This document shows, piece after piece, positions 1,557-43,691 of a stretch of 64,000 bases of DNA (position 1 is its first letter; each line of letters starts with the position of its first letter). Source of the DNA: Ignavibacteriota bacterium (GTDB taxonomy: Bacteria > Bacteroidota > Ignavibacteria > Kapaibacteriales > UBA2268); assembly GCA_016219595.1 (NCBI GenBank), contig JACRLY010000069.1, positions 158 to 64,157 on the forward strand, given 5' to 3'. A model generated the notes under the pieces. The model did not search any database. It was not told the origin of the DNA and was given only the letters and a program-made list of their open reading frames with translations. The position numbers and the translations under genes are program-made.

Positions 1557-1711
1557 TTGATTCACTATTTTATAAACAATATGTTTTTAGATATAAAATA
1601 ACGACACCTATACGCTATATAAAAGTAAATATTAATTATTAAATAAAAAAATCTTTTTGTCATTTCTATAAATATAATGACACATAAAACCTAAAAAGGT
1701 CTCAAAAATTT

Positions 1712-1741
1712 AAAAATAGACCAATTTATTGGTCTATTTTT
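1712..1741 (-). terminator. Perfect 14-bp-arm palindromic hairpin flanked by A/T runs (intrinsic terminator at the end of the element operon)
   Basis: aaaaatagaccaat-tt-attggtctattttt lies directly downstream of the minus-strand ORF ending at 1752. Confidence 0.6.
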
Positions 1742-1751
1742 GTTATATATT

Positions 1752-2075
1752 TCAATTAGGATTTTTTCGTTTGGAGATATACCTGCCATTTACATAATCC
1801 AATTGAAAACAGTCAGCTAATTTTTTTATCAGCATAAACAACAACTCCTGATTGGCAAGAACCGAATCGATTTTAATCCTGAATTCTGCATTCTTTTTAA
1901 GTTGATTGTCTTTAAACGAGTTTAAACCTGCTATCTCATTTGACAGGATTTTCATGTTTAATTTTAAGTACTTATTAAACATAAAAAAATTAATTATAGA
2001 AAATTCGCTAAGAGTTAAAATTGCCCTGGCTATTAAGACAGGGCTTGGATTGATAATGTTGAAAAAATCTACCAA
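1752..2075 (-). CDS. Hypothetical protein (107 aa)
   Basis: ORF in the same orientation as the upstream Toprim-like gene, with a 24-nt gap. No recognisable motif. Confidence 0.4.
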   Translation of the reverse strand: MVDFFNIINPSPVLIARAILTLSEFSIINFFMFNKYLKLNMKILSNEIAGLNSFKDNQLKKNAEFRIKIDSVLANQELLFMLIKKLADCFQLDYVNGRYISKRKNPN

Positions 2076-2099
2076 AAATCACATATCAGAATTTTTTAT

Positions 2100-2879
2100 T
2101 TAAGAACTAATGTTATTCACAGGAGATTTTACGAAGCATTTTTTTGCTAATCTTAAAATAATATTGTCCGGTTCAGGGTGCAATAAAATAATTTTGTCAA
2201 ACCGATAAAGTAAATGTTCCTGTGTGTCGGTCATGGAATTTGACATTAATGCCACACAATTGGTTTTGCCAATACCAATATGAGACAAACAATCAAAAAG
2301 GCTTACCGTTACTATTACTTCATCGTAAGATTTTATTTTATTCAGATTGTACAGCGGCCGCTTAAAATTCTTCGGAAAGAACCATTTGTCTTTCTCTGGG
2401 TGCCAACCGACATAACCAATGACATTACTTTGTTCGTCATAGACTTTAAAAGCAATCTTACCCTGCATGATGCTTCTTTGCTTCACATAGCCGACTTCAT
2501 ATTCCTTGGCTATTGCTTCAGAAATACCCAATTCTGCTAATTTCTGAATATAGTGTAATTCCAATTCTGGTATGTCTCTTTTTGTGTTATCAGGTTCATC
2601 TAAGAAGTGTAATTTTAATTCTTTAGCTGCTTCACGTAAACCAATATTTTCAACCATTGAGAGAAAGTTGATAACACTGCCTTTGGCTGTTTTGTTATCA
2701 GGTGAAAAGAAAATATTTTTTTCAATATTAATAATGAATTTAAAATTCTTTGTTTCACCTTTTAACTCTCCTCCCTTTTCCGAGTAAGGAATATTTTTCC
2801 AATTCAGCACATCATTGAATTTAATCCTGCCGCTGATTAATGTAAAATCAAGATACTTTTCATTCATAAAACTCTCCAA
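2100..2879 (-). CDS. DnaG-like primase/Toprim-fold protein, apparently degenerate
   Basis: KGSVINFLSMVENIGLREAAKEL resembles the tail of a CHC2 zinc-finger domain, but no Cys/His ligands are present. GYVGWHPEKDKWFFPKNFKRPLYNLNK resembles the DnaG core motif (KYxNSP...F.K...LY). VIVTVSLFDCLSHIGIGKTNCVALMSN...KIILLHPEPDN has a Toprim-like layout without the conserved Glu or DxD. Confidence 0.45.
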   Translation of the reverse strand: MESFMNEKYLDFTLISGRIKFNDVLNWKNIPYSEKGGELKGETKNFKFIINIEKNIFFSPDNKTAKGSVINFLSMVENIGLREAAKELKLHFLDEPDNTKRDIPELELHYIQKLAELGISEAIAKEYEVGYVKQRSIMQGKIAFKVYDEQSNVIGYVGWHPEKDKWFFPKNFKRPLYNLNKIKSYDEVIVTVSLFDCLSHIGIGKTNCVALMSNSMTDTQEHLLYRFDKIILLHPEPDNIILRLAKKCFVKSPVNNISS

Positions 2880-2926
2880 TTATAAAGAACAAAAAAACAA
2901 TTGTGAGCATTATATCACAGACACAC

Positions 2927-2954
2927 AAAAGCCCGCAAGGGTAGGCGGGCTTTT
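2927..2954 (-). terminator. GC-rich hairpin flanked by A-run/T-run (bidirectional intrinsic terminator)
   Basis: aaaagcccgc-aagggtag-gcgggctttt forms a 10-bp stem. Confidence 0.6.
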
Positions 2955-2957
2955 GAT

Positions 2958-3156
2958 GAAGTTAAGCAAAATCACAAATCAATGAAGCATCTACAAGTAT
3001 CAGCCTCCGGCTTGTTTAGCCCCATAATCCCGGACTAAGGCTGTTGGCAATAGCGCAAATTACTTGCGTATTGACCTTATCGGCAAAATTGCAGTATGGG
3101 ATTAGGAAAAGATTTGTTGCCTTGAAATCCTTTCCCGGTTTGTTTTGCTTAACTTC
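2958..3156 (-). ncRNA. Highly structured ~200-nt intergenic element (candidate ncRNA or ssDNA priming/transfer signal)
   Basis: A 14-bp long-range closing stem, gaagttaagcaaaa (2958-2971) with ttttgcttaacttc (3143-3156), encloses at least 3 internal hairpins. Examples are ggaaaagattt/aaatcctttcc and caatagcgcaa/ttgcgtattg. Local GC is well above the surroundings. It starts just downstream of the ATPase stop codon (a few nt) and ends at the terminator hairpin. Confidence 0.45.
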
Positions 3157-3160
3157 GATA

Positions 3161-4408
3161 TCATATCATAATCCATTCATCAGCTAAAAAGTCAAGTGTC
3201 TCAGGCTTCACCTGATTAATTGAAGGAAAAATAAAATCATCGGGAACTTCTTTTAAGATAGGTTTTTTAGTATTGATGTAAAATTTATTCGTACCCAAGC
3301 ATAGTCGGGCTTCATATTTATCCATCTCGGTGAAGTCGGATATTTTTAAATTAAAAACATCGCTCATAACTTTAGCAATAACCGGGCTGGTATTAAAAAC
3401 CAAATAATTGCTTACCGAACCCAGGATGGAATCAATAATAGCCAGCATCATCTTTTTATGATTTTCGGATTTTGCCGAACTAAAGTTAATATGCCCTAAA
3501 GTAAAACCGACTTTGGAGCTCCTGCCTAATTGCAGGGATTCAGCAAACATGCCGCTGGCTACCAAGTCAAATTCATCTATATAGACAAATAATGGTTTGG
3601 CTTTCTTGACTTGGTTCATGTAAGACAAGATTGCTCCGACAAAGAGATTGGCAACAAAAACTTTTACAAAATCATTGCTGGTTTCGATATTTATAATCAA
3701 ACTTTTGCCGTCTTGCACCAATTCATCAATATCCAGTTCATTTGGTTTATCAATAAAAACATTGGTTTTGTTATTTCTCAATGCCTGATGCAGACGGCTG
3801 GCGACACTGCTCATGGTTAAATCATAATCAGACATTTTCTTATAGGCGGTTTTACCGGGATTAAATAAATTTATCCACCATTTCTTGTTTTCAGGATTAG
3901 CATAGTCATAATTATTTCTAAGATCCTTGTCGGTTAGAAAGTCAGACAAATGCTTTATGCTTAAATCTTCAGGCTGGAAAGAATCCAGGGCTTTTTCAAT
4001 TACTTCCTTCATTCTGACCGTTGATTCGGGATTGGAAGAAGTCGTCGTAATAACATTATCAAGTATCTGACTGAATTCTCCGACCAATGTATCATAATCA
4101 TAACCTTTCTTTTCAAACAGATTGACAGCTATAGGATTATTAAAAGACACATATCTGACATTAGGATTTTCCTTAAAATGATAATACAATTTATCAGCAC
4201 TCTCGCCTTTGGGATCGATAAAAATAACGGAATAACCCTGCGAGATGTCATATTCCGCTAAGTTTTCCATGACAGTGGATTTGCCCATGCCGGACCTGCC
4301 GACAAGATACAAATGATGGAAACGGTCATCAAGACTTTCGAAATCAGGTAGATTGACTGATAGCTCCTTATAGATTCCGAAACTATAGCGGTATTCATCG
4401 TTTGTCAT
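3161..4408 (-). CDS. P-loop NTPase, TraD/VirD4/HerA-FtsK-like (soluble coupling-protein-like ATPase)
   Basis: Walker A GRSGMGKST and Walker B-like LFVYIDEFD are present, with no N-terminal TM segment. The context is plasmid-type genes. Confidence 0.6.
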   Translation of the reverse strand: MTNDEYRYSFGIYKELSVNLPDFESLDDRFHHLYLVGRSGMGKSTVMENLAEYDISQGYSVIFIDPKGESADKLYYHFKENPNVRYVSFNNPIAVNLFEKKGYDYDTLVGEFSQILDNVITTTSSNPESTVRMKEVIEKALDSFQPEDLSIKHLSDFLTDKDLRNNYDYANPENKKWWINLFNPGKTAYKKMSDYDLTMSSVASRLHQALRNNKTNVFIDKPNELDIDELVQDGKSLIINIETSNDFVKVFVANLFVGAILSYMNQVKKAKPLFVYIDEFDLVASGMFAESLQLGRSSKVGFTLGHINFSSAKSENHKKMMLAIIDSILGSVSNYLVFNTSPVIAKVMSDVFNLKISDFTEMDKYEARLCLGTNKFYINTKKPILKEVPDDFIFPSINQVKPETLDFLADEWIMI

Positions 4409-5259
4409 TAGGCATTACTTTTTTGGTTAAATCTGAAATTATACAACTTAGCCTGGTTATCAATCTCACGGCTTTCACTATCGGCTAATTTGGTTTTGCC
4501 TTCGGCGTAGGTTCTAAAGGATTCCGCCTTGTTTTTGTCAATGTCGCTTAAAACCTTATTATATTGAGCAATAGTTTCAATATTATCTTCAGATTCTTCG
4601 TTATAGAAATTAGCTATTTCATGCAAGACATCAACCGGGATCTCTTTAATACTATTATCCTTTAATTTTTCAAAAAAGAGCTTATACATTTCTATTTTTG
4701 ACTTTTTAAGATCAATTTCGGTTTCTCCGTCCGCTCTAAGCAGTTCATTTTCAATTTCAAATTTTTCTCCGAATAATTCATCTTCCTTAACTTTTCTTTC
4801 ATAAAAACTCGATTCCGATTTACTGCTGGCAACGATTCTTTTTAGTTCAGCTTTAGCCTTTGATTTTTTCATCTCAGAAAGCAAAACTATCATCTTTTCG
4901 CTGACAATGGCATCGGCTCGTAACAGCTGCAGGGATTCTCCCATTTCTCTCAAGGTCTCAATCCGGTCCTTTAACATTCTTTGCCGGTCGGAATCAAGTC
5001 TGATTTTGTTAATCTCCCGATTTTTAGACCAAAGAAAAATCGGTTGTTTCTTTCCCAGTGAATCGGATAGTTGCCGGGTTAAATCAGCCAAAGATAATTC
5101 ATCGAGATTAATGACTTTATCCTTATAATAACCGTCTTTATCCTCAAAAGTATTTTCATGGGCTTGCTTAATAATGGCTTTGTCGTTTTGGGGATTGATA
5201 TTCAAACCAGGTTTAAAACCGTAGTTTTCAATCGTGGCAGAGAATTTCTTCTGACTCAT
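4408..5259 (-). CDS. Hypothetical coiled-coil protein (283 aa, K/E-rich)
   Basis: Long ORF whose stop overlaps the start of the ATPase gene (shared nt 4408). The charged heptad-like composition is consistent with a coiled coil. Confidence 0.5.
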   Translation of the reverse strand: MSQKKFSATIENYGFKPGLNINPQNDKAIIKQAHENTFEDKDGYYKDKVINLDELSLADLTRQLSDSLGKKQPIFLWSKNREINKIRLDSDRQRMLKDRIETLREMGESLQLLRADAIVSEKMIVLLSEMKKSKAKAELKRIVASSKSESSFYERKVKEDELFGEKFEIENELLRADGETEIDLKKSKIEMYKLFFEKLKDNSIKEIPVDVLHEIANFYNEESEDNIETIAQYNKVLSDIDKNKAESFRTYAEGKTKLADSESREIDNQAKLYNFRFNQKSNA

Positions 5260-5740
5260 ATCTTCTTTCTTTCAATTCTTGAACATCATATGGAGCGTCA
5301 AGATCTATTACTTCCTGACAGTGTGGGCAATTTAATAACCTGACCGGATCGTCACAATGCGAACATCCGAAAAGTACATTATGAAAAGTCTGACCTTCAG
5401 CATCGCAATAAGGGCATTTAATTTCATCAATATTTTTAACCAGAATATTTTTCAGGCAATGCGGACAAGTGAACACATGATTTAATAATATGTCATCATT
5501 ATTTTCAAATTTGAATGCAAATAAAAACGCCACCAGTAAAACACATAAGAAAGCGGAAATAATATCCACTAAAGCAAAATCATGGATAAAACCATTGGCA
5601 AGCACTACTAAAAATATTAATAGTAAGAATACAATGCCGATTTTTTTAAATTTTTCGTAATTGAAGTTTAAAAACGGTTTATAATTAATATTATCAATTA
5701 TAATGTCTCTGATGCTAATATAATCGTTCTCTGAATTCAA
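5228..5740 (-). CDS. Membrane protein with C-terminal double zinc-ribbon
   Basis: Two hydrophobic helices (IGIVFLLLIFLVVLANGF and IISAFLCVLLVAFLFAF) are followed by four CxxC pairs: CPHC, CPYC, CSHC and CPHC. Confidence 0.55.
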   Translation of the reverse strand: MNSENDYISIRDIIIDNINYKPFLNFNYEKFKKIGIVFLLLIFLVVLANGFIHDFALVDIISAFLCVLLVAFLFAFKFENNDDILLNHVFTCPHCLKNILVKNIDEIKCPYCDAEGQTFHNVLFGCSHCDDPVRLLNCPHCQEVIDLDAPYDVQELKERRYESEEILCHD

Positions 5741-6563
5741 AACCTTTACCCCAATTTTTATTAATATTGCCTATTATTAAAACGGAAAATTTGAAATCAT
5801 TAATCTTGGGTTCTGGTAACAATAAAAACCGTGCCATTTTTTTCCAATATTCAAAAACTGCCATGTCTGCTTTTAATTTAAGATAATTTTCTCTCATCTT
5901 GTCTAACCTCTGTTCCCAATTAGACTGCTCTGTTTCAATTTCAAGAAATTTCAATTTATATTTTTTGCCTTCCTTCAGTACCATCAGAGCGTCGGGACGG
6001 ATATAAGTAAAATCAGGAAATAACAGAAAATAATAATTCGGCAGTTTCAAGGCCTGTACAAAAACCTCGCTGTTCTTTATTTCATTGGCCGTATCAATAC
6101 CCTTAGGTAATGGTTTAAAAACTTTAAAATAATTGTCTTGGTTAAAGGACACGGCTTTAAGAATTTTTTCAGTCGTCTCATTGGCGATATAGATTTTTGT
6201 GTCTTTCTCGATTGCCGAGATATGCCCAATAATAACTAATTCATCTAAAATATCTTTTGTCGCTACTTTGGAGACTCCTGAAAAAGACAAAGAACGCAAT
6301 TGAGCTTGCGTGGTATATTTTAATAGCCGGATGAAATAGTACAACCGGAAAAACTGCTGATAGCTCCTAACGGTTTTATTCTGATTATATATCAATGGTT
6401 TTAATTGCTCTTTAATCAATGATAGGCTAAAAGTGTGTTCAAAGATATTGCCTTGAATAGAATCCATATAACATCCAAAATTATCTGTAAAATAAAAACC
6501 TAAAAATCTGGAAAATGAAGCAATAAAAAATATGCCAATGTTTCCAGATTTCAAAAAAATCAC
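5715..6563 (-). CDS. Replication-relaxation-like protein (wHTH + PD-(D/E)xK-like C-terminus), paralog 1; likely true start at 6467
   Basis: RPDALMVLKEGKKYKLKFLEIETE is a PD...ExE nuclease-like motif. It has the same architecture as the 18707-19513 ORF. The internal Met (MDSIQGN, ATG at 6467) aligns with the paralog N-terminus, and an inverted repeat lies in the putative N-terminal extension. Confidence 0.5.
   Translation of the reverse strand: MIFLKSGNIGIFFIASFSRFLGFYFTDNFGCYMDSIQGNIFEHTFSLSLIKEQLKPLIYNQNKTVRSYQQFFRLYYFIRLLKYTTQAQLRSLSFSGVSKVATKDILDELVIIGHISAIEKDTKIYIANETTEKILKAVSFNQDNYFKVFKPLPKGIDTANEIKNSEVFVQALKLPNYYFLLFPDFTYIRPDALMVLKEGKKYKLKFLEIETEQSNWEQRLDKMRENYLKLKADMAVFEYWKKMARFLLLPEPKINDFKFSVLIIGNINKNWGKGFEFRERLY
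6504..6551. promoter_or_regulatory. 11-bp perfect inverted repeat upstream of paralog 1 (candidate operator / nic-site hairpin)
   Basis: aaatctggaaa (6504-6514) pairs with tttccagattt (6541-6551), with a 26-nt spacer. It lies 37-84 nt upstream of the probable ATG at 6467. Confidence 0.4.
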
Positions 6564-6727
6564 TCAAATAAATCAATGAATTAAAGATTTATTCCAGACC
6601 GGAATATGGTAATATAGTCAAACATGAATAAAACTTATGTCAATGCCTTTATGGCTTGATATAAGTTTTATTTGTGTTATGTCTTCAAATAGGGCGGGTA
6701 AGCGGGTTATCAATCAATTAGCACAAG

Positions 6728-7143
6728 CTCAAAATACAAATCAAAAATCAAATAATTATAAATCAGATATCAAACATAACAACAAATAAAACATCAATAC
6801 AAAGAACAATCTCAACAATCAATAAAAAACATTAATAAATATCAATCATAAAAACACCTATCAAAAAATATCAATAAACTATAAAATATTACCCAAATAA
6901 ATCATTAAAAAATCACCTCATCAAAAAACTAAAAAACATAAACCAAAACCATAAACCAATACAAAAAACATTAAACAAAATCAAAAACATAATCATCAAC
7001 AAAATCCCCTAATAAAAATATCAATCAATCACAAAAACCAAACAAGCAAGAAACATCTTTAAATATCAATCATAAAAACACCTATCAAAAAATATCAATA
7101 AACTATTAAATATTCCCTGAATAAATCAATAAAAAATCCTCCC
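6728..7143. repeat. G-depleted A/C-rich iteron tract with an ~83-bp direct repeat (candidate origin or centromere-like site)
   Basis: There is no G at all on the plus strand from 6805 to 7045 (241 nt), and only 4 G in 6728-7118. The motif ATCAA(T/A) occurs about 25 times. Direct repeat copies at 6837-6919 and 7061-7143 share an identical first 46 nt and are about 90% identical overall. No frame is open on either strand. Confidence 0.7.
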
Positions 7144-7177
7144 TCGGAAGGAAAATCAATCTCCCAAGATTACAAAA

Positions 7178-7194
7178 AATGCTCATTGAGCATT
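7178..7194. promoter_or_regulatory. Perfect 17-bp palindrome (candidate operator)
   Basis: aatgctca-t-tgagcatt. Confidence 0.3.
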
Positions 7195-7479
7195 AATCAA
7201 AACATTGACAGATTAGAAAAAAATCATCAATCCATAATCTAAATCGAAATAAAAATAATAACCTTAAAAAAAGTCAAACTGAAACCATAAATAACGAATA
7301 GCAAAGCAAATGAACAGTCCATAAAAGGAACAAAATATTAACATTCAAACTTAAAATATTAATATCCCCTGGTATCCTTTTAAAACGTTCCCATAAGCCA
7401 TAAAACGGCCATACGGAAACAAAACCTCAATTCAGGTCATCAAGTACCTGAAACAAGAAATCATCTAAGTAGAGGCTTT

Positions 7480-7522
7480 TAAAAAGGAAAAAGCCACCTA
7501 TAAGAATCATCTCATAGGTGGC
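7480..7522 (-). terminator. Intrinsic terminator after the RHH gene
   Basis: On the minus strand, gccacctat-gagatgattctt-ataggtggc (9-bp stem) is followed by tttttcctttt. It sits 49 nt downstream of the stop at 7571. Confidence 0.65.
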
Positions 7523-7570
7523 TCGCTGGCATAGGCAATCAAAACAGGTCTAATCCTGTAATGCCTGCCC

Positions 7571-7789
7571 TTAAAAAGAACTTTTTTCTCCTTCCCAATC
7601 GCCTTGTCTCTCTTTATGGCTTTGGCTCGTAGAAGGAGAGCTATCAGGCTGGCAATTCCGCTTGTGTATCCCATTATTTATATACTCCTCTATAATACTA
7701 CTGACAAACTTAGTCATCGGCTTCTTATGCTCCTTAGCTATTAAATATAGCTTAGGTATCAGTTCTGGTTTTATCTTAGGACTATACAT
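7571..7789 (-). CDS. Ribbon-helix-helix (CopG/ParG/Omega-like) DNA-binding protein
   Basis: SPKIKPELIPKLYLIAKEHKKPMTKFVSSIIEEYI fits a beta-strand/helix/loop/helix RHH pattern. The tail is disordered and S/P/E-rich. Confidence 0.5.
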   Translation of the reverse strand: MYSPKIKPELIPKLYLIAKEHKKPMTKFVSSIIEEYINNGIHKRNCQPDSSPSTSQSHKERQGDWEGEKSSF

Positions 7790-7903
7790 ACAGGTCTCCT
7801 AATGAAAAACCTAATCTTAGGCTAAAAATCAAGTCCGAAATTTTTCTGGAAAAGGCAAGTAGGGAATGAGAAATTTTCAGCAAAATTTTAATAGATAAAC
7901 TTT

Positions 7904-8680
7904 TCATACAATTTCCTCTGTCAGTATTAAATTTAATACCTTCTCCACTTCGCTTAATAATTTCACGCAAGCTATATATGGCGTACAACCAATATTAGCT
8001 GAATAGGTCTCAATATAGCGGTAGCTATTCCCGGCTTGGCTATCCGTTGTCTTGCCGACTATCCGGCACAAGGCTTGGGCTGATAATTCGGCTACAATCT
8101 CCTGTGCCAGGTGCTGTCCTGCTTGTATAGAGCCTAAAACCTTTTCGTGGGCGGCATGAGCCAGTTCGTGAAAGAAGGTTCTTTCTTCCGGGGTTGCTAA
8201 GCAGATTTCCTTTTTCTGAGGCACATAATAGCCATTGTATTCCAAACTGCCGCTAACCGCTTTAACGGAAATTCCCCAGGCTTGAGCTTTCTCCATTAAA
8301 GGTAAACGGAGTAGCTTGATTTCTTCATAAACCAAATCTTCGCCTTCGGTATCTTCCATCCGAAACACCGGACTGGTCATGAATCCGGCTAAGAATACCT
8401 GGTCTTCGCCATTATCATCTGCCCTGGATTTAATCAATGGCACTAATATATACAGGGCATGACTGCCTTTTTTGATATTGCGGTTAACTGTCTGCCATTG
8501 CCTAAAACCTCGTGCATCGGCCGTCCCGGAAAAAATCATCAGCAATTGGTTGAACATCGACCATTTAGAACTGGGAATATTGGGAATGGGAAAACGGGTA
8601 ATGGCTATGGCTTGGGGGATGTCTCCTGTTTTAAACTGCTCCAAAATGGAACTTAAAACTTTAGTAATTTTGTCTGTCAT
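7904..8680 (-). CDS. ardC: ArdC-like antirestriction protein (ssDNA-binding N-domain + zincin metalloprotease domain)
   Basis: The N-terminus (ARGFRQWQTVNRNIKKGSHALYILVP) resembles the ArdC/DUF1738 domain. An HExxH motif is present in FFHELAHAAHEK. Confidence 0.7.
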   Translation of the reverse strand: MTDKITKVLSSILEQFKTGDIPQAIAITRFPIPNIPSSKWSMFNQLLMIFSGTADARGFRQWQTVNRNIKKGSHALYILVPLIKSRADDNGEDQVFLAGFMTSPVFRMEDTEGEDLVYEEIKLLRLPLMEKAQAWGISVKAVSGSLEYNGYYVPQKKEICLATPEERTFFHELAHAAHEKVLGSIQAGQHLAQEIVAELSAQALCRIVGKTTDSQAGNSYRYIETYSANIGCTPYIACVKLLSEVEKVLNLILTEEIV

Positions 8681-8698
8681 ATAAAATCCTCTAAATGA

Positions 8699-9427
8699 TT
8701 AAAATAATGTTATCTGATCACTGATTTCCAATTTGCTCCTCATCAGCACTTTAGGCTTTATTGCCTCTGCTTCCTCGTCTGTTAATACCCTGATAGAGCC
8801 TCCTAAACAGCTGCGGCTGGTCTGATATACCTTAAGATACTCAAAGTTCAAGGTGTCTCCTAAAATGGCGTAACCGTTGAGATTGAAGAATAGCAGGTTT
8901 AAAGCACACATTTTCACGCAGGTGTGATTGATGTCCTGCCCGATAAATAGGGTCTGATTCAAAGACTGATAGGACATTAACTTGCAGGTTTCAATAAGCA
9001 ATACTCCGGCTCCGCAACAGGGATCGGAAATAACTTCCCGCTTGTAAGGTTCCAGCATTTTAGCCATAAATCCGGCAATATGCTTGGGTGTAAAAATCTG
9101 CCCGGTATTCTTGTGGGTTAAATTCCACTTCATGTAGATTTCCCCTAAGAGTTCATCATTGCTCTTCTTCATTTTAGCCAATAATAGCTGGCAGGCATTT
9201 TTGAAGAAGTCAATTTCCCGCTGGCCGGTTTCGGCTGTGTTGCGGTATCTCTTAGCCACAGTTAGATAGAATTCTTCATCCCCTAAGAAGGAATAAAGCA
9301 TTAAATCCAGCCAGTCGCTAAAAATCCGGTGGGCCTCATAACCCATTGCCTGGATTTTCTCCAGTTCTTTAATGATGTCTTTCACATGGTTTTCCTCTGG
9401 ACTGCTAATTATTCTAATGGGAAGCAA
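8699..9427 (-). CDS. N6-adenine DNA methyltransferase-like protein lacking catalytic motif IV (truncated or degenerate)
   Basis: FTPKHIAGFMAKMLEP...ISDPCCGAGVLL provides motif X and motif I (SAM binding). GQDIN...NLLFFNLNGYAILGDTL is a post-I region of HsdM/N6_Mtase type. The ORF ends about 45 aa later with no (N/D)PP(Y/F) motif. Confidence 0.55.
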   Translation of the reverse strand: MLPIRIISSPEENHVKDIIKELEKIQAMGYEAHRIFSDWLDLMLYSFLGDEEFYLTVAKRYRNTAETGQREIDFFKNACQLLLAKMKKSNDELLGEIYMKWNLTHKNTGQIFTPKHIAGFMAKMLEPYKREVISDPCCGAGVLLIETCKLMSYQSLNQTLFIGQDINHTCVKMCALNLLFFNLNGYAILGDTLNFEYLKVYQTSRSCLGGSIRVLTDEEAEAIKPKVLMRSKLEISDQITLF

Positions 9428-10129
9428 ATAAGACCGGTTAATAAATTGTTAAGGTGCTACTTTTACCCTTCAAAAAAGATAAAAAATAATTTGAGGAAAA
9501 TTATACCACAAATCAGAAAAGGAAAAAACACCAAAATTTGTTAAGAAAAATACTCAATTTCCCAAGCAAAAAATGGAGATCATAAATTTGAAAAAATTAA
9601 ATTAATGGTGGCTGTAAAAAAATCTCCAAAACCTTTCCCTGAGACCGGGCATTGTTAATCTGATTGGCATCTGTCCAAATCGGTTGAACTAATCAATAGA
9701 AAATGAAAAATTGATACTAGTATTTATGAGATGTCTTGCTTCTTATCACAAAGTCATCAATAGCAATTTTATCTGTCAAAAACTATAAAATGGTAGGTGT
9801 GTCCGAAAAAACTGCGGTCAAAATCTGGAAAAGGAAACGAAGTCTTAATGAGAATTATGCTTAATTCATATAAAAAGGTAAGGAGCTTTAAAAAAACAGC
9901 TAAGATTAGGGAAAAAAATAAAAATTTTTGATAATATATTAACTTTGAATACTGTGATAATATTGAAATTTTACTTAATTAGAGTAAACTTCATATATAT
10001 TAGAATATATGCAATTTAGGGGAATTTAGCATAAGGATAAATTTTTAATAAGATATAAATTTTTTAATTTGCTTATGTTAATTATTTTAAAATTATAATA
10101 ATTTAAAATTAACAGAATTTAAGAGATTT

Positions 10130-10873
10130 ATGTTATTTTTAAAAAATCTTCATCTAGCTTACGAAAAAAAAAATTTGCTCAACGGGGTAAATATAGAGCT
10201 TAAACGGAATACCGTAACATCTTTATTGGGACCCAACGGTGCAGGTAAGACCTCATTATTTAACATTATTTCAGGATTCATCAAACCAGACCAAGGAAGG
10301 ATTTCTTTCAATAATATAAATTTACTAAAGCTATCTCCTTCCGAAATTGCCAAATGTGGGATAACTAGAACTTTCCAAGATTTGCGTATAATTAAGGAGC
10401 TAACCGTCAAGGAAAACATAGTTCTGTCCTTTAAAAATAATCCAGAAGAAAATATTTTCCGAGCAATTATACCAAAATTTATTAATAGAAATTTCGATAA
10501 AAAGTTTGAAATTAAAGCTAAGAAAATTCTCGAACAAGTCAATTTATCAGATGTAGAAAATAAATTAGCTGGCAAAATTTCCTATGGTCAGCAAAAATTG
10601 CTGACATTGGGTTGTGCCATCGCCAATGAACCCGAATTGATTTTGTTAGATGAACCTGTAGCAGGCATTAATATAATTTTTCAAGAACAAATTAAAAAAA
10701 TAGTTGACAGTTTAAAACAAGCAGGCATGTCAATATTATTAATTGATCACAATGCAGAATTTATTGATTCTGTCAGCGATGAAATTTTGTTCTTGAATGA
10801 GGGAAATATTACTAAATTTCAAAATTATTTAGAATTTAAGGAAATAGTGCTTGCAGATTTTGAATACTATTAA
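10130..10873 (+). CDS. livG: Branched-chain-amino-acid-type ABC transporter ATP-binding protein (LivG-like)
   Basis: Walker A GPNGAGKTS, signature ISYGQQKLL and Walker B LILLDEP. Confidence 0.85.
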   Translation: MLFLKNLHLAYEKKNLLNGVNIELKRNTVTSLLGPNGAGKTSLFNIISGFIKPDQGRISFNNINLLKLSPSEIAKCGITRTFQDLRIIKELTVKENIVLSFKNNPEENIFRAIIPKFINRNFDKKFEIKAKKILEQVNLSDVENKLAGKISYGQQKLLTLGCAIANEPELILLDEPVAGINIIFQEQIKKIVDSLKQAGMSILLIDHNAEFIDSVSDEILFLNEGNITKFQNYLEFKEIVLADFEYY

Positions 10874-10913
10874 TAAGTTAGATTAAATTTTTTAATAATT
10901 TAAAAATATTAAA

Positions 10914-11636
10914 TTGTTAGAAGTCAAAAATATATCAGCATATTATGGCATACAACAAGTGTTGTTTGACATTTCTTTTGAGATTAAGCAAGGCGAGATA
11001 GCCTTAATTATCGGTGGTAATGGAGCAGGGAAAAGTTCCATTTTAAAAAGCATTTTTGGGATCTTGCCATTAAACAGCGGCCAGGTGATATTTAACGGGC
11101 AGGATATAACAAATGTCAAAACCTTCAACTTAATTAAAAAAGGATTTGTCTATTTACCCCAAAAAGACAATTTTTTTGAGGATATGACTGTGCTGGAAAA
11201 TTTGCAGGTTGCTGGAATGAAAATAAAAGGAAAAAAAGAGCTTCAAAAAAGAATGGATTATGTATTTGAAATTTTCCCAGATCTTTATGAAATCAGGAAA
11301 AGAATCCTTTTTAACATGAGTGGTGGAGAAAAACAAATTTTAACATTATGCATGGCTCTTATTCATAAACCAAAGATGATAATGATAGATGAACCGACCG
11401 CTGGATTATCCCCAAAATTAACAAAAACAATCATTGAAAATATTAAAACCATAAACAAAACTGAGAGTGTTACCTTTTTAATTGTTGAGCATAAAATAAA
11501 AGAAATAATTAAAATTACAGAAAGATGTATAAGTATAAAAAATGGTACAATAGTTAAAACATTACATAATAAAAATATTAAAAATAATGATTATATTTAT
11601 ACAAATAATTTCTTAAAAGAAGTTTTATTTATTTAA
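10914..11636 (+). CDS. livF: ABC transporter ATP-binding protein (LivF-like), TTG start
   Basis: Walker A GGNGAGKSS, signature MSGGEKQIL and Walker B MIMIDEP. Confidence 0.85.
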   Translation: MLEVKNISAYYGIQQVLFDISFEIKQGEIALIIGGNGAGKSSILKSIFGILPLNSGQVIFNGQDITNVKTFNLIKKGFVYLPQKDNFFEDMTVLENLQVAGMKIKGKKELQKRMDYVFEIFPDLYEIRKRILFNMSGGEKQILTLCMALIHKPKMIMIDEPTAGLSPKLTKTIIENIKTINKTESVTFLIVEHKIKEIIKITERCISIKNGTIVKTLHNKNIKNNDYIYTNNFLKEVLFI

Positions 11637-11644
11637 TTAAAAAT

Positions 11645-12808
11645 ATGACAAAAAAATCAACTGTAACATTAATTTGTTCTTTATGTATAATAACCGGGAT
11701 TATTTTATCTTGGGTTTATTTTAAAGAAGATCATAAAAGTAAAAATAAAGATGTCATTAATATTGGAGTGATTACTTCTCTTACAGGAACAATTGCACCT
11801 TATGGAAAAAATGTTCTAAATGGACTTCTGCTTGCTAAAGATGAAATTAATAATCACGGAGGAATAAATAATAAAAGAATTAATTTGATTATTGAAGATG
11901 ATAAATCGTCAACTAAAGATGCAGTATCATCCTTTAATAAATTATTTACAATAGACAAAGTACCATTAATAATAGGTCCTGTCGGCAGCACAGAAGCAAT
12001 GGTGTGTGCCCCCATAGCCAACTTAAATAAAATCGTAGAATTTTCTCCTGCTGCTTCAACACCAATGTATACAACTACAGGTGATTATACTTTTAGGAAT
12101 CGGTCAAGTGCAGCATTAGAAGTTGAGGTTATGGCAGATATTGCATATAAAAATCTCAACATTCGTAATATTGCAATTTTATATATAAACAATGATGTTG
12201 GCAATAGTTTCTATCCGTACTTTATTAATAGGTTTACTAAACTTGGTGGGAAAATTTTAATCACAGAAACTTTTGATCAAGGTTCAACTGATATGAGAAA
12301 ACAACTCTCAAAAATTAAAAAGTTTTCTCCCGATGGTTTGTATTTTATTGGACATGTAGAAGAATCTGGTTATATTTTGAAACAAATTAAAGAGTTAAAT
12401 ATTAAAACTCGTCTTATCAGCCATTATTCTCTTGAAGGAAAAGAGTTATTTGATATAGCTGGAAAAGCTGCTGAAGGGATTATTTATACTGCTCCGGGTA
12501 TTGAAAAACAGTCTGTCAACCCTAAGTATTCAGCATTTGCTAAAAAATATCTTGAAAAATATGGCTCAGATTGTGACGTTTTCTCAGCTACTGCTTACGA
12601 TGCACTATATATATTAAAAATTGCTATTGAAAAAGGTGGATATAACTCCGAAGGCATTAAAAATGAATTATATAAGATTAATAATTTTATTGGAGTTACA
12701 GGAATGACAAGTTTTGATAGTAATGGCGATGTAGTAAAACCAGTTGTTGTAAAAGAAATTAAAAATGGTGAATTTGTAGAGATTGTGAATATAAATGATC
12801 TGAAATGA
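11645..12808 (+). CDS. Type-1 periplasmic substrate-binding protein (LivK/LivJ-like) with N-terminal anchor
   Basis: INIGVITSLTGTIAPYGKNVLNGLLLAKDEINNHGGI...IIGPVGS is the typical Leu/Ile/Val-binding protein family pattern. Confidence 0.8.
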   Translation: MTKKSTVTLICSLCIITGIILSWVYFKEDHKSKNKDVINIGVITSLTGTIAPYGKNVLNGLLLAKDEINNHGGINNKRINLIIEDDKSSTKDAVSSFNKLFTIDKVPLIIGPVGSTEAMVCAPIANLNKIVEFSPAASTPMYTTTGDYTFRNRSSAALEVEVMADIAYKNLNIRNIAILYINNDVGNSFYPYFINRFTKLGGKILITETFDQGSTDMRKQLSKIKKFSPDGLYFIGHVEESGYILKQIKELNIKTRLISHYSLEGKELFDIAGKAAEGIIYTAPGIEKQSVNPKYSAFAKKYLEKYGSDCDVFSATAYDALYILKIAIEKGGYNSEGIKNELYKINNFIGVTGMTSFDSNGDVVKPVVVKEIKNGEFVEIVNINDLK

Positions 12809-14160
12809 ATAATAAAAAGATACAATTAATTAATCCTCCTCTTTGTTCTGATTATATTGAATCATCACGAGCTGGGTCCTATCCACCAATAAATTTGATT
12901 TCTTTAGCAACTTACATTAAAACTCATAGTTCAAAATATGAAGTAGAAATATTGGATGGAGAGATACTTTCATTAGAAGAAATTGAATCCAAGATAGATG
13001 CAAGATATGTTGCCATTGGCACTAATATCTTGAGTTATAATAATACAATACATATTGCACAATTTGCAAAAAATCAAAATGCAGTTGTAGTTGTTGGTGG
13101 CCATTATGCTTCTGCAATACCAGAATTAATCTTAATGAACAGATTGTATATTGATTATATAATTATTGGAGATGCTGAAAAAGCCCTCATGGAATTAATA
13201 AATGAATCGCCTCTTGATAGTATTAATAATCTCGTATATCGAAAAAACAATAATATTATTATTAATGAAATAAAAAAAATATCTTTAAAAAAAACACCAT
13301 TATTAGATTTCGAATTTGTCGATTTAAATAAATATTTTCGTAACTTTAATAATAATTACCCAAATAAAGATTACAAACGTCCTTTGGTAATATTTTCTTC
13401 TAAAGGATGTATCTGGAGATCCAAATCCAAAGGATGTATATATTGTGGAATAATGCATGATGGCTGGCGAGCTAAATCTGCATCACAAATTTGGAATGAA
13501 ATTCTTTATTATAAAAATTTATACGATATAGATTTTATTTGGGATGTTTCTGATACGATAACAGCTAGTAAAAAGTGGTTAAAAGAGTTCGCATTGTCAA
13601 AACCAAATGATTTAAACATTGGATTTCATTTATACTCAAGGGCAGATCAAATTAATTCAGAAGTAATGGATTATCTTTCAATGATTAATTGCAAAGAATT
13701 ATTTATTGGAGCTGAGTCTGGGGATGATAAATGTTTAACTCTTTCAAATAAGGGTTATAAAGCAGAACAAAATATCAAGGCAGTAGAGTTTGTGAGCACC
13801 TATAATATAAAAATTGTGCTATCCATAATGTTGGGTTTATACGGAGAATCATTGGATAGTATTAGTAGAACGGAAAATATGATAAAATTGCTAATTAACA
13901 TATCAGATATAGAAGAGGCTTTTGTAAATGTTTTATTACCTATTCCAGGATGTGAAAGTTATACAATGATATTGAAAAATAATATTTTAAAAGAAAAATA
14001 TTATCAGTGTGATTTATTACCATTGGAAGAATTAAGAAAAGACTGGTTAGAAAATTTTACAAATATAACCTATAATGAGTCGCAGTTTTTCAGAGATAGA
14101 TTATTGGAATTGTTTAATATTGGATCAAGTTTCGGAAAACCAAAGGTAAAATGTATCTAA
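12805..14160 (+). CDS. Cobalamin-binding-domain radical SAM protein with atypical CX8CX2C cluster motif
   Basis: The N-terminus has a B12-binding-like Rossmann layout (YVAIGTNILSYN...VVVVGGHYAS). SSKGCIWRSKSKGCIYCG carries Cys codons at 13408, 13435 and 13444. The downstream part is radical-SAM-like (ELFIGAESGDD). The start overlaps the binding-protein stop (ATGA). Confidence 0.7.
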   Translation: MNNKKIQLINPPLCSDYIESSRAGSYPPINLISLATYIKTHSSKYEVEILDGEILSLEEIESKIDARYVAIGTNILSYNNTIHIAQFAKNQNAVVVVGGHYASAIPELILMNRLYIDYIIIGDAEKALMELINESPLDSINNLVYRKNNNIIINEIKKISLKKTPLLDFEFVDLNKYFRNFNNNYPNKDYKRPLVIFSSKGCIWRSKSKGCIYCGIMHDGWRAKSASQIWNEILYYKNLYDIDFIWDVSDTITASKKWLKEFALSKPNDLNIGFHLYSRADQINSEVMDYLSMINCKELFIGAESGDDKCLTLSNKGYKAEQNIKAVEFVSTYNIKIVLSIMLGLYGESLDSISRTENMIKLLINISDIEEAFVNVLLPIPGCESYTMILKNNILKEKYYQCDLLPLEELRKDWLENFTNITYNESQFFRDRLLELFNIGSSFGKPKVKCI

Positions 14161-14178
14161 TTTACGAAAGGGTGTTGC

Positions 14179-16386
14179 ATGAAAAACAACTGGATTGATA
14201 GTTTTAAAAAACAATTTAACGAAGAAATTAAAATTGAAGATAAATATCTATTAAAATGGTTTATTGAATCAATTAAATTTGAAAATCGTGAACAATTCAC
14301 AGAATTGCTAAACATAATGGTCTTACTTGTTTTTGGTATTGATGAACCCCAAAAAATTGAATTTAAAAATTTATATTTAACAGATCCTAATATTATTAAT
14401 AAATTTAAGGTTAATAAAAATTTTGAGTGGCAAAAATGGCTTTATGATGAATTACAATTACGATATGGAGGGATTCATTATCTAAGCAGTACGTTGGGAA
14501 CTTGGCATAGATTTGTATTTGGGGAGAAATGGTATAGTGGAATTGAAGACAAATTAATATCAAATCATGCATTAGATATTGATTATCACAATAGAACATA
14601 TGATTTATTAACTCGTAAAGAAAATGTTTTTCTTGATGAAGAACAAAAAGAAAGAATTAAAATTAATATTGAAAATGGGGAATTGTATGGTGAAAATTTT
14701 AAAGAGATAAGCAATTTCTTAATCTATCATATTAAAAAAAATATTTATCATGGCCTAATGATGCATGAAATATTGGAAGATGATAAAAGAATTGAAGCCC
14801 TATTAACAGAACCAATGTTTGAGAAAATAGTGAATATAGCTTCGAAAATTTTTAAGTACCCAATTAAGAATATAACAGATAGTAGTAAAATTGAATTATT
14901 TAGAAAATTTAATTTTGTTCTTTATCGAACTTTATTACTTGGTTCTATAAATGCTGAAGTAATTTCTTCGCAATATATTAATATTATACCAATCACAAAT
15001 TTTAATAATATTCATTATGCTACATTTGTTGGTATATTTGAAGAAAAATTACCTGAAGATACATTAAATGATGTTGAGTATTTTTTTAATAATTTCCTTA
15101 CTAATATTAACGCCTTTGAATTATCAGTTCAAAATGAATTGTTGCCTAGATCTGTTATTACTATTGAGGACTGTGTTCGTAAATTTTCAAGGATACCTAA
15201 TTTGAATCAAAACGGTTATGCTGGTAATGGAATCACAGAAAAAGATTTAATTAAAGAAGAATTAAGTTTATTTAGCGATAAAGAAAACAAGTACGGAGCC
15301 TTTATTCAAAAATTAATTGAAGATTGGGTAAAAGAGAAAAAAATCAATAAAGAAGAAAAAGAAGCTTTGGAAATAGGTATAAAACTTAAATTTGTTGGAG
15401 CTAATTCTGAAATGATTGATATTTTAAATAATCTCAACTTTAATCTTAGTCATAAAAATGGAAAAGGTGAAGCAATTTTACTGTATAGCGAACCCGGGAA
15501 TGGAAAGGAAACAATTGCGCAATTATGTCATTTTCTTTCCAAAAGGTGGATGACAAAAGATAACATAATAATTGGAGAAATTATCGGAAAAAAATTGGTC
15601 GGTGAAATAAAAGACTCCTTAACTTCAATATTGGAAAATAGCAACATACAAGTTGAACACGATAATGAAAAATTACAAATTAAGTTTGATAACGAACAAA
15701 TATATTATGACAATATCCTTTCATACAATTTTAATAATTTTCATGCTGGCTTGTTATCAAATAATAATTTTAGAAATATTCTATTTGGGAAATATGATGA
15801 CCCTTCAGGCAAATTGACACCTGGTGAATTTTATTTATCCCATCTTACAAAGGGAACTTTATTCTTGGATGAAATTAATACAATAAGTGAACCTAAATTA
15901 TCAAGTTGGTTTTTAAGAACCCTTGAAAAACCATTTTCAATAGTTCCTGAAAATTCTGTTTCAGCAATTGATAATATTGATGTTTTAACAATATTTGCTA
16001 GCAATTTATCTCCATATGAACTTATTAATATTGGTTTTAATCAAGCATTTATATCAAGGTTGAGAACTTATAACATACCACCGTTAAGAAATCGAGTAGA
16101 AGATATTCCTTTACTTATCAATAAGTTCATTTGGTTACATAAGCGTAATTATAAAAAAGCTGAACCTTCAGAATTATATAAATTTGTAGAAATTCAAAAA
16201 ATTGATATTAAAGGATTACATATATTGATTAGATTACCTTGGCGTGAAAATATCAGAGAATTAAAAAGATTTATAGATGACTTAATTGCAGCCCGGATAG
16301 AAAGAAAAATTACTACAAAAGAAATATCTTTTGATGAAATTATAAGATGTATTGTTCGTAATGAAAAAAAATTACTCGGGAAATAA
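14179..16386 (+). CDS. Large protein with C-terminal sigma54-interaction-type AAA+ domain lacking GAFTGA and HTH; ~400-aa N-terminal region of unknown function
   Basis: Walker A LLYSEPGNGKET, Walker B GTLFLDEINTI, FASNLSPYELI, RLRTYNIPPLRNRVEDIPLL and WRENIRELKRF all match bEBP AAA+ motifs. The GAFTGA loop is replaced by FGKYDDPSGKLTPGEF. An insert of about 60 aa follows Walker A. There is no Fis-type HTH tail. Confidence 0.65.
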   Translation: MKNNWIDSFKKQFNEEIKIEDKYLLKWFIESIKFENREQFTELLNIMVLLVFGIDEPQKIEFKNLYLTDPNIINKFKVNKNFEWQKWLYDELQLRYGGIHYLSSTLGTWHRFVFGEKWYSGIEDKLISNHALDIDYHNRTYDLLTRKENVFLDEEQKERIKINIENGELYGENFKEISNFLIYHIKKNIYHGLMMHEILEDDKRIEALLTEPMFEKIVNIASKIFKYPIKNITDSSKIELFRKFNFVLYRTLLLGSINAEVISSQYINIIPITNFNNIHYATFVGIFEEKLPEDTLNDVEYFFNNFLTNINAFELSVQNELLPRSVITIEDCVRKFSRIPNLNQNGYAGNGITEKDLIKEELSLFSDKENKYGAFIQKLIEDWVKEKKINKEEKEALEIGIKLKFVGANSEMIDILNNLNFNLSHKNGKGEAILLYSEPGNGKETIAQLCHFLSKRWMTKDNIIIGEIIGKKLVGEIKDSLTSILENSNIQVEHDNEKLQIKFDNEQIYYDNILSYNFNNFHAGLLSNNNFRNILFGKYDDPSGKLTPGEFYLSHLTKGTLFLDEINTISEPKLSSWFLRTLEKPFSIVPENSVSAIDNIDVLTIFASNLSPYELINIGFNQAFISRLRTYNIPPLRNRVEDIPLLINKFIWLHKRNYKKAEPSELYKFVEIQKIDIKGLHILIRLPWRENIRELKRFIDDLIAARIERKITTKEISFDEIIRCIVRNEKKLLGK

Positions 16387-16391
16387 TTAAA

Positions 16392-17270: not shown

Positions 17271-17273
17271 AAA

Positions 17274-18161: not shown

Positions 18162-18399
18162 AATGATAAATCATGAAGAAAACACGATTTATATAAATTT
18201 TCGAGTTTTCACATTGTAATTAGACAAATTGATTGATATAAAAAGTGGTAATTGAAAAAATGATTTTGATATAAAGCGAGTAAGACTGCTACTAAAGATA
18301 AATTCATTAGTATCTATTTTTTATCTTTCAATCAACCCTAAATATTGTGAGCATCCATATATCTGATATCAAAATCTGGAAATAGTAAAAAATTGCAAA

Positions 18400-18431
18400 T
18401 AAAAACCCCATTTTCTTTTTAAAAAATGGGG
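18400..18431 (-). terminator. Hairpin with T-run on the minus strand
   Basis: The stem ccccatttt/aaaatgggg is followed on the minus strand by tttttatttgc. Confidence 0.4.
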
Positions 18432-18706
18432 CGTTGTAATTGGATGAAAAAATTAAGTATAAATTTCAGCGAGTCAGGATCCTCTGCAACAATTTCCCAA
18501 GAGGATGGGTATAATACTATCATCTTGACTATCAATAGTACCGTAAGATTATTGGATTTTGTCCTGAAATTCTTGCTAGCTTAATTTTTCCCAAAACACA
18601 AAGAACCAGTATAGGAATTATATATTAAACTATTTTCTTGTCAAGAGAGAAATATCATTTAAAGAAAAACAAAAAAACAGATAAAAAACCCAAAAAAAAT
18701 ATCAAT

Positions 18707-19513: not shown

Positions 19514-19566
19514 ATAATTATTCTAAGATTATCCATTATACTATTTTATTTACTATTAGACTATAG

Positions 19567-30129: not shown

Positions 30130-30170
30130 TATTTTTCCTAATCAAATCCTACTTAAATTCAAATCATATT

Positions 30171-43636: not shown

Positions 43637-43691
43637 TAATAAAATTAAATTAAATATTAATCATTACAATATTTTATTGTTTGTAGTATTG

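Follow-up and report, generated by a model that had tools for sequence, protein, structure and literature searches.

A G-free tract beside a conserved C-rich box in an Ignavibacteriota mobile element, a possible leader of an oriT-like site

A 416-nt non-coding tract is situated upstream of a gene coding for a nuclease-like protein in a mobile element contained within a 64,000-nt stretch of Ignavibacteriota bacterium assembly GCA_016219595.1 (contig JACRLY010000069.1, positions 158 to 64,157), which was analysed in full and is referred to here as the window. The tract is almost devoid of G on the plus strand and hence of C on the minus strand, which is the gene-sense strand. As judged from the sequences compared, it is this composition, i.e. 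the absence of one base from one strand, which is conserved at the same position among relatives, and not the ATCAA word to which an earlier note had drawn attention. The tract is tentatively read as a spacer, expanded by slippage and with G excluded, on the leading side of a site resembling an origin of transfer (oriT), where it would be unable to fold. The features of the tract and its immediate surroundings are as follows (position, strand, description):

6728-7143, described for both strands: base-excluded tract of 416 nt, delimited by composition and run lengths; plus strand almost G-free, minus strand almost C-free
6824-6914, plus: 91-nt direct repeat, copy 1 (repeat finder); a copy is also present in the closest relative, L001
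7048-7138, plus: 91-nt direct repeat, copy 2 (repeat finder); 90% identity, 224 nt from copy 1
6692-6707, minus: box A, conserved and C-rich, ACCCGCTTACCCGCCC on the minus strand; family consensus ACCCGATGCC(N2-3)CCC
6621-6678, no strand assigned: inverted repeat beside box A, 23-nt arms and 12-nt loop (repeat finder)
6507-6514 (plus), 6541-6548 (minus) and 6591-6598 (minus): three copies of TCTGGAA(A/T), between the hairpin and the gene start
5715-6467, minus: 250-aa winged-helix and PD-(D/E)XK nuclease-like protein of a distant Replic_Relax/MOBC-like family
7137-7152, minus: terminator-like hairpin and T-run directly before the tract in gene sense
7178-7194, minus: second terminator-like hairpin
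7491-7524, minus: strong intrinsic terminator of the upstream operon, 15 pairs and a T-run
7571-7789, minus: 72-aa ribbon-helix-helix (RHH)-like small protein (weak assignment; PHROG CopG-like match, E 0.007)

Composition of the tract and of its counterparts in related loci

The window has a G+C content of 32% and a G content of 15.6%, and with this composition approximately 2e-14 G-free runs of 241 nt would be expected. The strict core of the tract (plus strand, 6805-7045) is such a run of 241 nt, with the runner-up in the 64 kb window extending over 82 nt, and only four of the 391 nt in 6728-7118 are G. On the plus strand the tract comprises 59% A, 20% C and 20% T (A+T 80%), while the gene-sense strand, which is C-free, comprises 59% T, 20% G and 20% A. 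No open reading frame (ORF) of at least 40 aa was found inside the tract, with between six and sixteen stop codons per frame in all six frames. Two 83-nt copies (6837-6919 and 7061-7143) are equal at 75 of the 83 positions, the first 46 of which are identical. These counts bear out much of the descriptive part of the earlier note, which had reported the G-free run, the four G residues, the non-coding character and the 83-bp repeat, and had placed the tract, as was again observed, between the RHH-like gene with its terminator on one side and the gene with a weak Replic_Relax match on the other. The periodicity of A-tracts, AA and C in the tract did not exceed that of shuffles. A search against Rfam (at the gathering cut-off, and also at E up to 1) returned chance-level microRNA and histone stem-loop matches on the hairpins only, and the DNA of 5700-7800 had no match in plasmid and phage collections. 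The runner-up runs free of one base in the window, 30110-30191 (82 nt, no G) and 21781-21856 (76 nt, no C), are unremarkable A+T-rich spacers that precede host genes, and in both cases C is the base missing from the sense strand of the gene that follows; a short C-free leader may perhaps be a general trait in this genome.

Protein-guided searches yielded 98 loci (given L numbers here), mostly from Ignavibacteria, with some from Latescibacterota and other taxa. The gene order is conserved over the loci and all element genes are co-oriented. In approximately seventy of them the same layout occurs in gene sense, with a terminator followed by a C-poor spacer, box A, a hairpin, short direct repeats and the nuclease-like gene. 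Over the 150 nt preceding box A, 55 non-identical loci show a C fraction of 0.089, a G fraction of 0.220 and a skew of 0.43, compared to 0.151, 0.172 and 0.08, respectively, in 236 further non-coding regions upstream of genes in these loci (Mann-Whitney p ~1e-18, for loci which are phylogenetically non-independent). Weight is carried by these skew statistics and by runs of at least ~80 nt only. The long, strictly C-free runs next to box A are:

L016: 477 nt
L001: 253 nt
window: 241 nt
L017: 152 nt
L098: 105 nt
L070: 98 nt
L002: 87 nt
L024: 82 nt
L021: 81 nt
L097: 78 nt

The sequences of the long C-free tracts are unrelated between lineages. The tract of the window clade is T-rich with TGAT/TTGAT words, while that of L016 (2994-3470) consists of 31 tandem copies of AGTAAGAAG with a 106-nt higher-order repeat, and that of L017 (3812-3963) of TAAG and GTAGTGAGA tandem units, with both of the latter ending exactly at box A. 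GTGAG words occur in the L024 and L070 tracts, and GAAGAG words in those of L021 and L077. The L016 and L017 tracts have a G+C content of ~37-40%, above the average of their own loci, and easy melting was therefore rejected as the shared property. The C-free state has sharp edges, in that the run begins right after a terminator hairpin and ends at box A in L002, L024, L070 and the window, the hairpin immediately preceding the C-free run in the first three also. In the window, the gene-sense order is methylase, ArdC-like gene, RHH-like gene, the terminator at 7491-7524, ~350 nt of ordinary non-coding DNA which ends with the terminator-like hairpins at 7178-7194 and 7137-7152, the tract, and the 250-aa gene. 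The C content of the non-coding DNA beside the tract (7144-7490) is ordinary.

One further locus, L003 (JBGGGW010000093.1, 1900-12500), carries the same module on a plasmid-like contig with a G+C content of 48%, where it adjoins separate Rep3, ParA, ParB, resolvase and tyrosine integrase genes. The family is thus not limited to integrated elements or to hosts of low G+C content. A ~520-aa ORF without a Pfam match is located between the hairpin and the nuclease-like gene in L016, L017 and L025; it lies in opposite orientations in L016 (3853-5403, minus) and L017 (4281-5861, plus).

The closest relative of the window element, L001, is found in the Ignavibacteria metagenome-assembled genome MHAY01000060 and shares 93% protein identity and the same gene order. 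In gene sense, the tract cores of the two differ by 16 substitutions (seven G/T, seven A/T and two A/G), none of which involve C. In the non-coding DNA at 7144-7570, 46 substitutions are observed, of which 13 involve C, ten of these being C/T. The core holds 146 T, and at the neighbouring rate around four T-to-C gains would be expected by our own estimate (p ~0.01-0.02). The insertions and deletions between the two tracts are duplications of neighbouring C-free sequence. These alignments suggest that the tract has grown by slippage and duplication while C has been kept out. The sharp edges of the C-free region and the normal C content of the adjacent non-coding DNA led to the rejection of a regional mutational bias, for instance deamination, as the sole cause.

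As single-stranded DNA, the window tract has a predicted folding energy of ~-1.5 kcal/mol per 100 nt, compared to a locus median of -6. Over the loci, the 100 nt before box A reach 0 to -2 kcal/mol on either strand, with locus medians near -6, and rank among the lowest 1-5% of windows. G-C and G-T pairs are both impossible in a strand without G, leaving only A-T, and such a strand would therefore stay unfolded. Priming through an R-loop was also considered and rejected, as the C-free strand of the window is T-rich and not purine-rich.

The conserved site, the nuclease-like gene and the oriT-like reading

Box A occurs as a single copy in the window, the tract stopping ~14-20 nt before it, and in approximately 70 of the 75 loci with enough upstream DNA it is found 150-320 nt upstream of the start of the homologous gene. 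The hairpin at 6621-6678 (DNA fold z-score -4.6) starts ~20 nt after box A in gene sense. In one subfamily of relatives analysed with RNAalifold, 13 pairs of the equivalent hairpin are kept, eight of the thirteen with compensatory changes. TCTGGAA(A/T) is repeated at the corresponding place in L002, L097 and L098. Two to four such short repeats occur per locus and they are clade-specific, with CCTGTAAAT, CCGTATAA or GCGTAAAT in other clades. The TCTGGAA(A/T) repeats are likely to be binding sites of the predicted winged-helix domain and/or an operator. Exact TCTGGAAA octamers show a related distribution, with six of the eight in the 64 kb window located inside the element (at 6507, 6541, 7845, 9824, 18375 and 19295), mostly in intergenic or promoter regions, which suggests a regulon of the winged-helix protein. 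The sequence-conserved elements, i.e. box A, the hairpin and the repeats at 6507-6598, are all situated just outside the interval flagged in the earlier note.

The 250-aa protein encoded at 5715-6467 scores 14.9 bits against Pfam PF13814, under the cut-off of 25.3, and weak matches to this family are produced by 11 of 27 family members (best E 1e-4). PF13814 is a family of the PD-(D/E)XK fold (PMC3424549) and corresponds to the MOBC relaxase superfamily (PMC5357655). An invariant Y.xPDAL...FLExE motif, including P158, D159, E176 and E178, is found in the family of the 250-aa protein. The AlphaFold2 model (predicted local distance difference test score, pLDDT, 87) has a winged-helix N-terminal half and an alpha/beta C-terminal half, and its Foldseek neighbours are FokI, Bax1 and the MarR/ArsR winged helices, all of them weak. 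The modelled protein would thus combine an N-terminal (winged) helix-turn-helix with a C-terminal PD-(D/E)XK core bearing conserved acidic residues, the combination by which MOBC relaxases are recognised. A plasmid search with the protein gave no match.

On sequence evidence, box A, the hairpin and the TCTGGAA(A/T) repeats, which are conserved and adjoin the gene for a winged-helix and nuclease protein, are read as a candidate oriT-like site. An inverted repeat and short direct repeats lie beside that gene, which is reportedly the arrangement at MOBC oriT sites. The gene context on either side of box A is made up of the following:

2100-5740, minus: downstream conserved module, with synteny over ~30 loci, of which the next four entries are part
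5228-5740, minus: zinc-ribbon membrane protein
4408-5259, minus: coiled-coil protein
3161-4408, minus: TraD/VirB4/HerA-like P-loop ATPase
2100-2879, minus: DnaG-like primase
7904-8680, minus: ArdC-like protein with HExxH motif, anti-restriction type (PHROG anti-restriction, E 3e-7; Pfam ArdcN, E 0.006)
8699-9427, minus: orphan N6-adenine DNA methyltransferase (Pfam N6_Mtase, E 1e-19; NCBIfam hsdM-like)
18707-19513, minus: second conserved gene, nuclease-like, at the far end of the element

One side thus encodes an ATPase of the conjugation type, a primase, and the membrane and coiled-coil proteins, while the ArdC-like protein and the orphan methylase, together with RadC and ERF in relatives, are encoded on the other. 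The presence of a separate Rep3 and ParA/ParB replicon next to the module on L003 favours the same reading. The ArdC-like gene is kept upstream of box A in many loci. Anti-defence, orphan methylase and single-stranded DNA-handling genes accordingly flank the site in the way of a leading region, and anti-restriction and orphan methylase genes have been reported to be enriched in plasmid leading regions, in an orientation suited to their transcription from the transferred strand (PMC11541004). Read along the plus strand, the order in the window is repeats, hairpin, box A, tract, RHH-like gene, ArdC-like gene and methylase. Usually, the nick of an oriT is preceded on its 5' side by binding sites and a hairpin and followed by the leading region, and the hairpin is placed in this way at the oriT of HUH relaxases. 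The genes encoding the RadC-like JAB protein and the ERF single-strand annealing protein occur with many small unannotated ORFs between the ArdC-like gene and box A in L012 and L021 (L012, 1468-1935 and 2821-3375; L021, 2405-3079), an arrangement like that of establishment or anti-defence islands.

The mechanism that may be proposed from this arrangement is as follows. The tract flanks the oriT-like core at its far end from the nuclease gene. The feature under maintenance would be the exclusion of C from the gene-sense strand (G from the plus strand), with no particular word, and the present length of the spacer, 416 nt here and 80-477 nt in other lineages, would be due to repeated slippage and segmental duplication of C-free units. 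The plus strand would be nicked at or near box A and would leave 5' to 3', so that unwinding and transfer would begin with the G-free tract and continue into the ArdC-like and methylase genes, which would be read from that strand. With G kept out, this strand would be unfolded and would contain nothing resembling the G-rich box, and such an unfolded leader would be favourable to clean initiation, to threading and to a rapid conversion of the leading end.

Several observations weigh against this reading. The Pfam score of the nuclease-like protein is below the cut-off and none of its structure matches are significant. As the element genes are all co-oriented, their orientation cannot identify the transferred strand. 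No Frpo-like single-strand promoter was found upstream of the methylase operon (9428-9900, z -0.75 relative to shuffles), and the element has no type IV secretion system (T4SS) genes. A structured palindrome with compensatory changes at the element edge (19555-19710) could be the real oriT. The C-free run is 30-60 nt long in many family members, which is ordinary for A+T-rich spacers in these genomes, and the expansion of a repeat unit that lacks C by chance would be enough for a long C-free run, with no selection acting on what was added. Literature searches for oriT leading ends reported to be G-free returned none.

A broader proposal, which we consider doubtful, is that the tract exemplifies a class of cis-element defined by base exclusion, serving either as a selected leader strand free of structure and decoys or as a polar track for a translocase, at the nick or recognition box of an undescribed transfer module. 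This module would comprise the winged helix-turn-helix and PD-(D/E)XK nuclease, the membrane zinc-ribbon protein, the coiled-coil protein, the TraD/VirB4-like ATPase and the primase. It would be widespread in Ignavibacteria and neighbouring phyla, with the individual lineages satisfying the base rule by means of unrelated repeat units.

Word arrays and other alternative explanations

The earlier note had counted about 25 copies of ATCAA(T/A), where only a few were expected, and had considered a centromere-like or iteron function for an array bound by the RHH protein. The recount gave 17 copies of ATCAA in 6728-7143, 16 of these being ATCAA[T/A], and 22 copies in 6700-7260, and dinucleotide-preserving shuffles yield 9.4 +/- 2.4, so that the enrichment is a modest ~1.8-fold (z ~3). 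TGAT/TTGAT spacing in the window and relatives shows no significant periodicity relative to a position-permutation null, and a seeming 25-nt period of TCA[AT] was lost under that null. A weak heptad array (AAATCAA x5, 6738-6774) has a 74% match, and besides the 91-nt duplication only weak degenerate short periods are found in place of three or more regularly spaced direct repeats of 17-22 bp. A cis-acting DNA role for the tract, which is non-coding, far beyond chance in composition and located in the control region of a mobile element, is plausible, and this part of the earlier interpretation stands, while that of a centromere or iteron array read by the RHH protein is poorly supported.

It is nevertheless conceivable, if unlikely, that the clade-specific words (TTGAT/ATCAA, AGTAAGAAG, GTGAG and GAAGAG) are the sites of a small protein encoded upstream, where they would serve as a relaxosome accessory platform or else as a silencer or centromere-like site. 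Candidate binders are the RHH-like protein, whether or not it carries a zinc ribbon, and a protein of the KEFxxxVCxWL family. The TGAT/TTGAT words are common to the window clade even though its tracts are unalignable (27 TGAT in the window, 14 in L097, six in L098 and five in L002), and this, the excess of ATCAA over shuffles and the weak heptads at 6738-6774 all argue for such an array. Omega-type RHH proteins bind 7-bp sites, which the AAATCAA heptads resemble, and relaxosome accessory proteins are often RHH proteins. A small gene is also always found directly upstream of the tract. The RHH assignment is itself weak, however: the 7571-7789 protein has one CopG-like PHROG match, no match was obtained in Pfam or the Protein Data Bank (PDB), and the AlphaFold2 monomer, an extended N-terminus followed by two helices, is of low confidence (pLDDT 63). 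RHH-like homologues, some of them fused to a zinc ribbon, lie upstream of the tract in L002, L026, L077, L024 and L070; L026 and L077 combine the RHH-like N-terminus with a CxxC...CxxC zinc ribbon, and L024 and L070 have the zinc-ribbon part. The N-terminal KIKxxLI/V strand of these proteins is similar in clades where the tract words differ, and the clade with the longest tract carries a different small protein in place of the RHH-like one. This substitute, with the pattern KEFxxxVCxWL...GY[VI][IV]CW...EHV, is encoded directly upstream of the tract in one clade (L016, 2682-2930; L017, 3305-3640; L025, 3602-3817; L080, 540-812). Furthermore, the element contains no ParA/ParM-type partner and no iteron-type Rep, the words lack regular spacing, and a binding array leaves unexplained why C is avoided on the same strand in five unrelated sets of words and in the spacers between them. 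The ATCAA/TTGAT words may be a by-product of the repeat unit that is peculiar to the clade, or may provide an accessory protein with secondary sites to bind.

A replication origin, with the nuclease-like protein as initiator and box A, the hairpin and the short repeats as the origin proper, appears improbable. The primase and ATPase would here provide priming and helicase functions, and the tract would be an unwinding or strand-specific loading zone. Proteins implicated in relaxation and also in plasmid replication share the name Replic_Relax (PMC3424549), the DnaG-like primase and P-loop ATPase are strictly linked to the gene, the short direct repeats adjoin it, and the 80% A+T of the window tract would suit an origin. 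This easy melting is not shared by the L016 and L017 tracts, however, with their 37-40% G+C, and L003 has a separate Rep3 and ParA/ParB replicon. The ATPase, moreover, resembles conjugative translocating ATPases and not replicative helicases, with all of its weak matches being to conjugative or DNA-translocating proteins (TraD, VirB4, CedD and TraC), and its partners are membrane and coiled-coil proteins. None of the element proteins contains an iteron-binding Rep initiator domain of the Rep_3/RepA/TrfA type.

A similarly low probability is assigned to a neutral minisatellite, i.e. functionless filler generated by slippage of units which lack C by chance, the skew reflecting local mutational bias. 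Tandem and higher-order repeats in L016, L017 and the window, lengths varying from ~30 to 477 nt among relatives, and the window/L001 insertions and deletions, which duplicate neighbouring C-free sequence, are all consistent with this explanation. Against it, all lineages with a long tract lack the same base on the same strand, no C-creating substitution is observed in a core that is 59% T, and the edges are sharp, with a normal C content at 7144-7490.

Least probable by far is a role in RNA, whereby an unstructured, G-free antisense transcript of the plus strand would be a Rho loading site shielding the ArdC/methylase operon from antisense transcription or, conversely, C-free sense read-through RNA would be invisible to Rho: the plus strand has 20% C and 0% G, which with its lack of structure suits the Rho requirement for at least 80 nt of unfolded RNA rich in C and poor in G, the antisense strand of L016 is C/T-rich and a 516-aa opposite-strand ORF in L016 points into the tract, but intrinsic terminators precede the tract in gene sense, the sigma-70-type promoter scan gave fewer matches than shuffles and no convincing plus-strand promoter into the tract, the equivalent ORF of L017 lies on the other strand, there is no Rfam match, and Rho dependence would not require zero G.

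The wider element, known systems and significance

The likely limits of the element (~1708-19731) were derived from the comparison with L001. The window and L001 elements occupy different chromosomal neighbourhoods, from which it follows that the element is mobile and integrated. No integrase was recognised among its genes and no att-like direct or terminal repeats were found at its ends. An ABC-transporter cargo operon (10130-18161) is present only in the window, and a 14-nt direct repeat (TCAAAATCTGGAAA) flanks it at 9818 and 18369. The genes at 1752-9427 are all encoded on the minus strand. The TraD/VirB4/HerA-like ATPase is the only NTPase of the element, a CbiA match being a P-loop match at E 0.03, and no ParA/ParM partner NTPase was found. 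Exact-protein look-ups for two window proteins returned no record. A 26-aa hydrophobic ORF (MDCSFALLFVIYGFSLTFFKVIIFISI, ~7250-7330, minus) was considered as a small toxin and rejected, since its ATG is ATT in L001 and it is probably not a gene. The sole RNA gene detected in the window, a tRNA-Leu (anticodon TAA; 43691-43777, minus), is not beside the element.

The second nuclease-like gene (18707-19513) has no homology to that at 5715-6467 detectable by hhalign. Just upstream of it, at the element edge, lies the nested palindrome of ~150 nt (19555-19710; DNA fold z -7.9), with outer arms of the ATAGTGTGGCTATT type and inner arms of the AGGACAGCA... type. Its arms recur with compensatory changes in L001, L002, L011, L015, L018 and L026, and it may be a second cis site, i.e. 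an oriT, a recombination site or an operator.

Among known systems, oriT2 and TraX of the Enterococcus plasmids pAD1 and pAM373 (MOBC) share with the present site a protein with N-terminal DNA-binding and PD-(D/E)XK-type nuclease domains, and a cis site directly upstream of its gene that consists of an inverted repeat and short direct repeats varying among elements. This oriT2 is said to have been described by Francia and Clewell in 2002 and by Francia et al. in 2013. The differences are that the 5715-6467 protein falls below the Pfam threshold, that the hairpin has 23-nt arms and not ~140 bp overall, that the C-rich box and the long base-excluded spacer are undescribed for pAD1, and that the hosts are Ignavibacteria and not Firmicutes, with no T4SS linked here. 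The leading regions of conjugative plasmids similarly have ArdC-like, orphan methyltransferase, RadC and ERF genes beside a putative origin, oriented such that one strand could be the template. However, no structured single-strand promoter of the Frpo/ssi (single-strand initiation) type was found here, and known leading regions are reported as GC-rich and not base-excluded (PMC13478746).

RHH arrays (omega of pSM19035, ParG, ParR and CopG) resemble the present arrangement in that a small RHH-like gene adjoins a non-coding region of short words, but here ParA/ParM is lacking, the words are neither contiguous nor regularly spaced, and it is the composition and not the word that is conserved in the family. 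The FtsK-orienting polar sequences (KOPS), the SpoIIIE recognition sequences (SRS) and the Streptomyces clt/TRS (TraB recognition sequences), which are used by the FtsK/SpoIIIE/TraB translocases, are comparable in that a HerA/FtsK-superfamily ATPase is linked to the site and that exclusion of a base from one strand forces G-containing words into a single orientation. The GAGAAG-type words of the L016 and L021 tracts are reminiscent of SRS. No gamma-domain-like recognition module was identified, however, no defined 8-mer recurs, and the window tract is T-rich rather than G-rich. Iteron plasmid origins also combine A+T-rich non-coding repeats with a gene of a replication-named family, but there is no iteron-type Rep here, regularly spaced iterons of 17-22 bp are absent, and the Rep3 replicon of L003 is a separate neighbour.

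What emerges from the analysis is a family of mobile elements, conserved but unannotated, that occurs in Ignavibacteria, Latescibacterota and related uncultured groups, with its cis-sites and gene order mapped. Transfer and replication origins are usually described in terms of binding sites and hairpins, whereas here a rule on base content is conserved over up to 477 nt. If this rule is not selected, the tracts are a clean example of slippage building very long base-excluded sequences. If the rule is functional, it would represent a new kind of cis-element, and if it is selected, strong selection would act on the physical condition of whichever single-stranded DNA is unwound or transferred first, the relevant properties being the lack of folding, the lack of decoy recognition sequences or a strict polarity. 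Putting G back into the tract would in that case be a simple way to probe a step of conjugation that is difficult to investigate.

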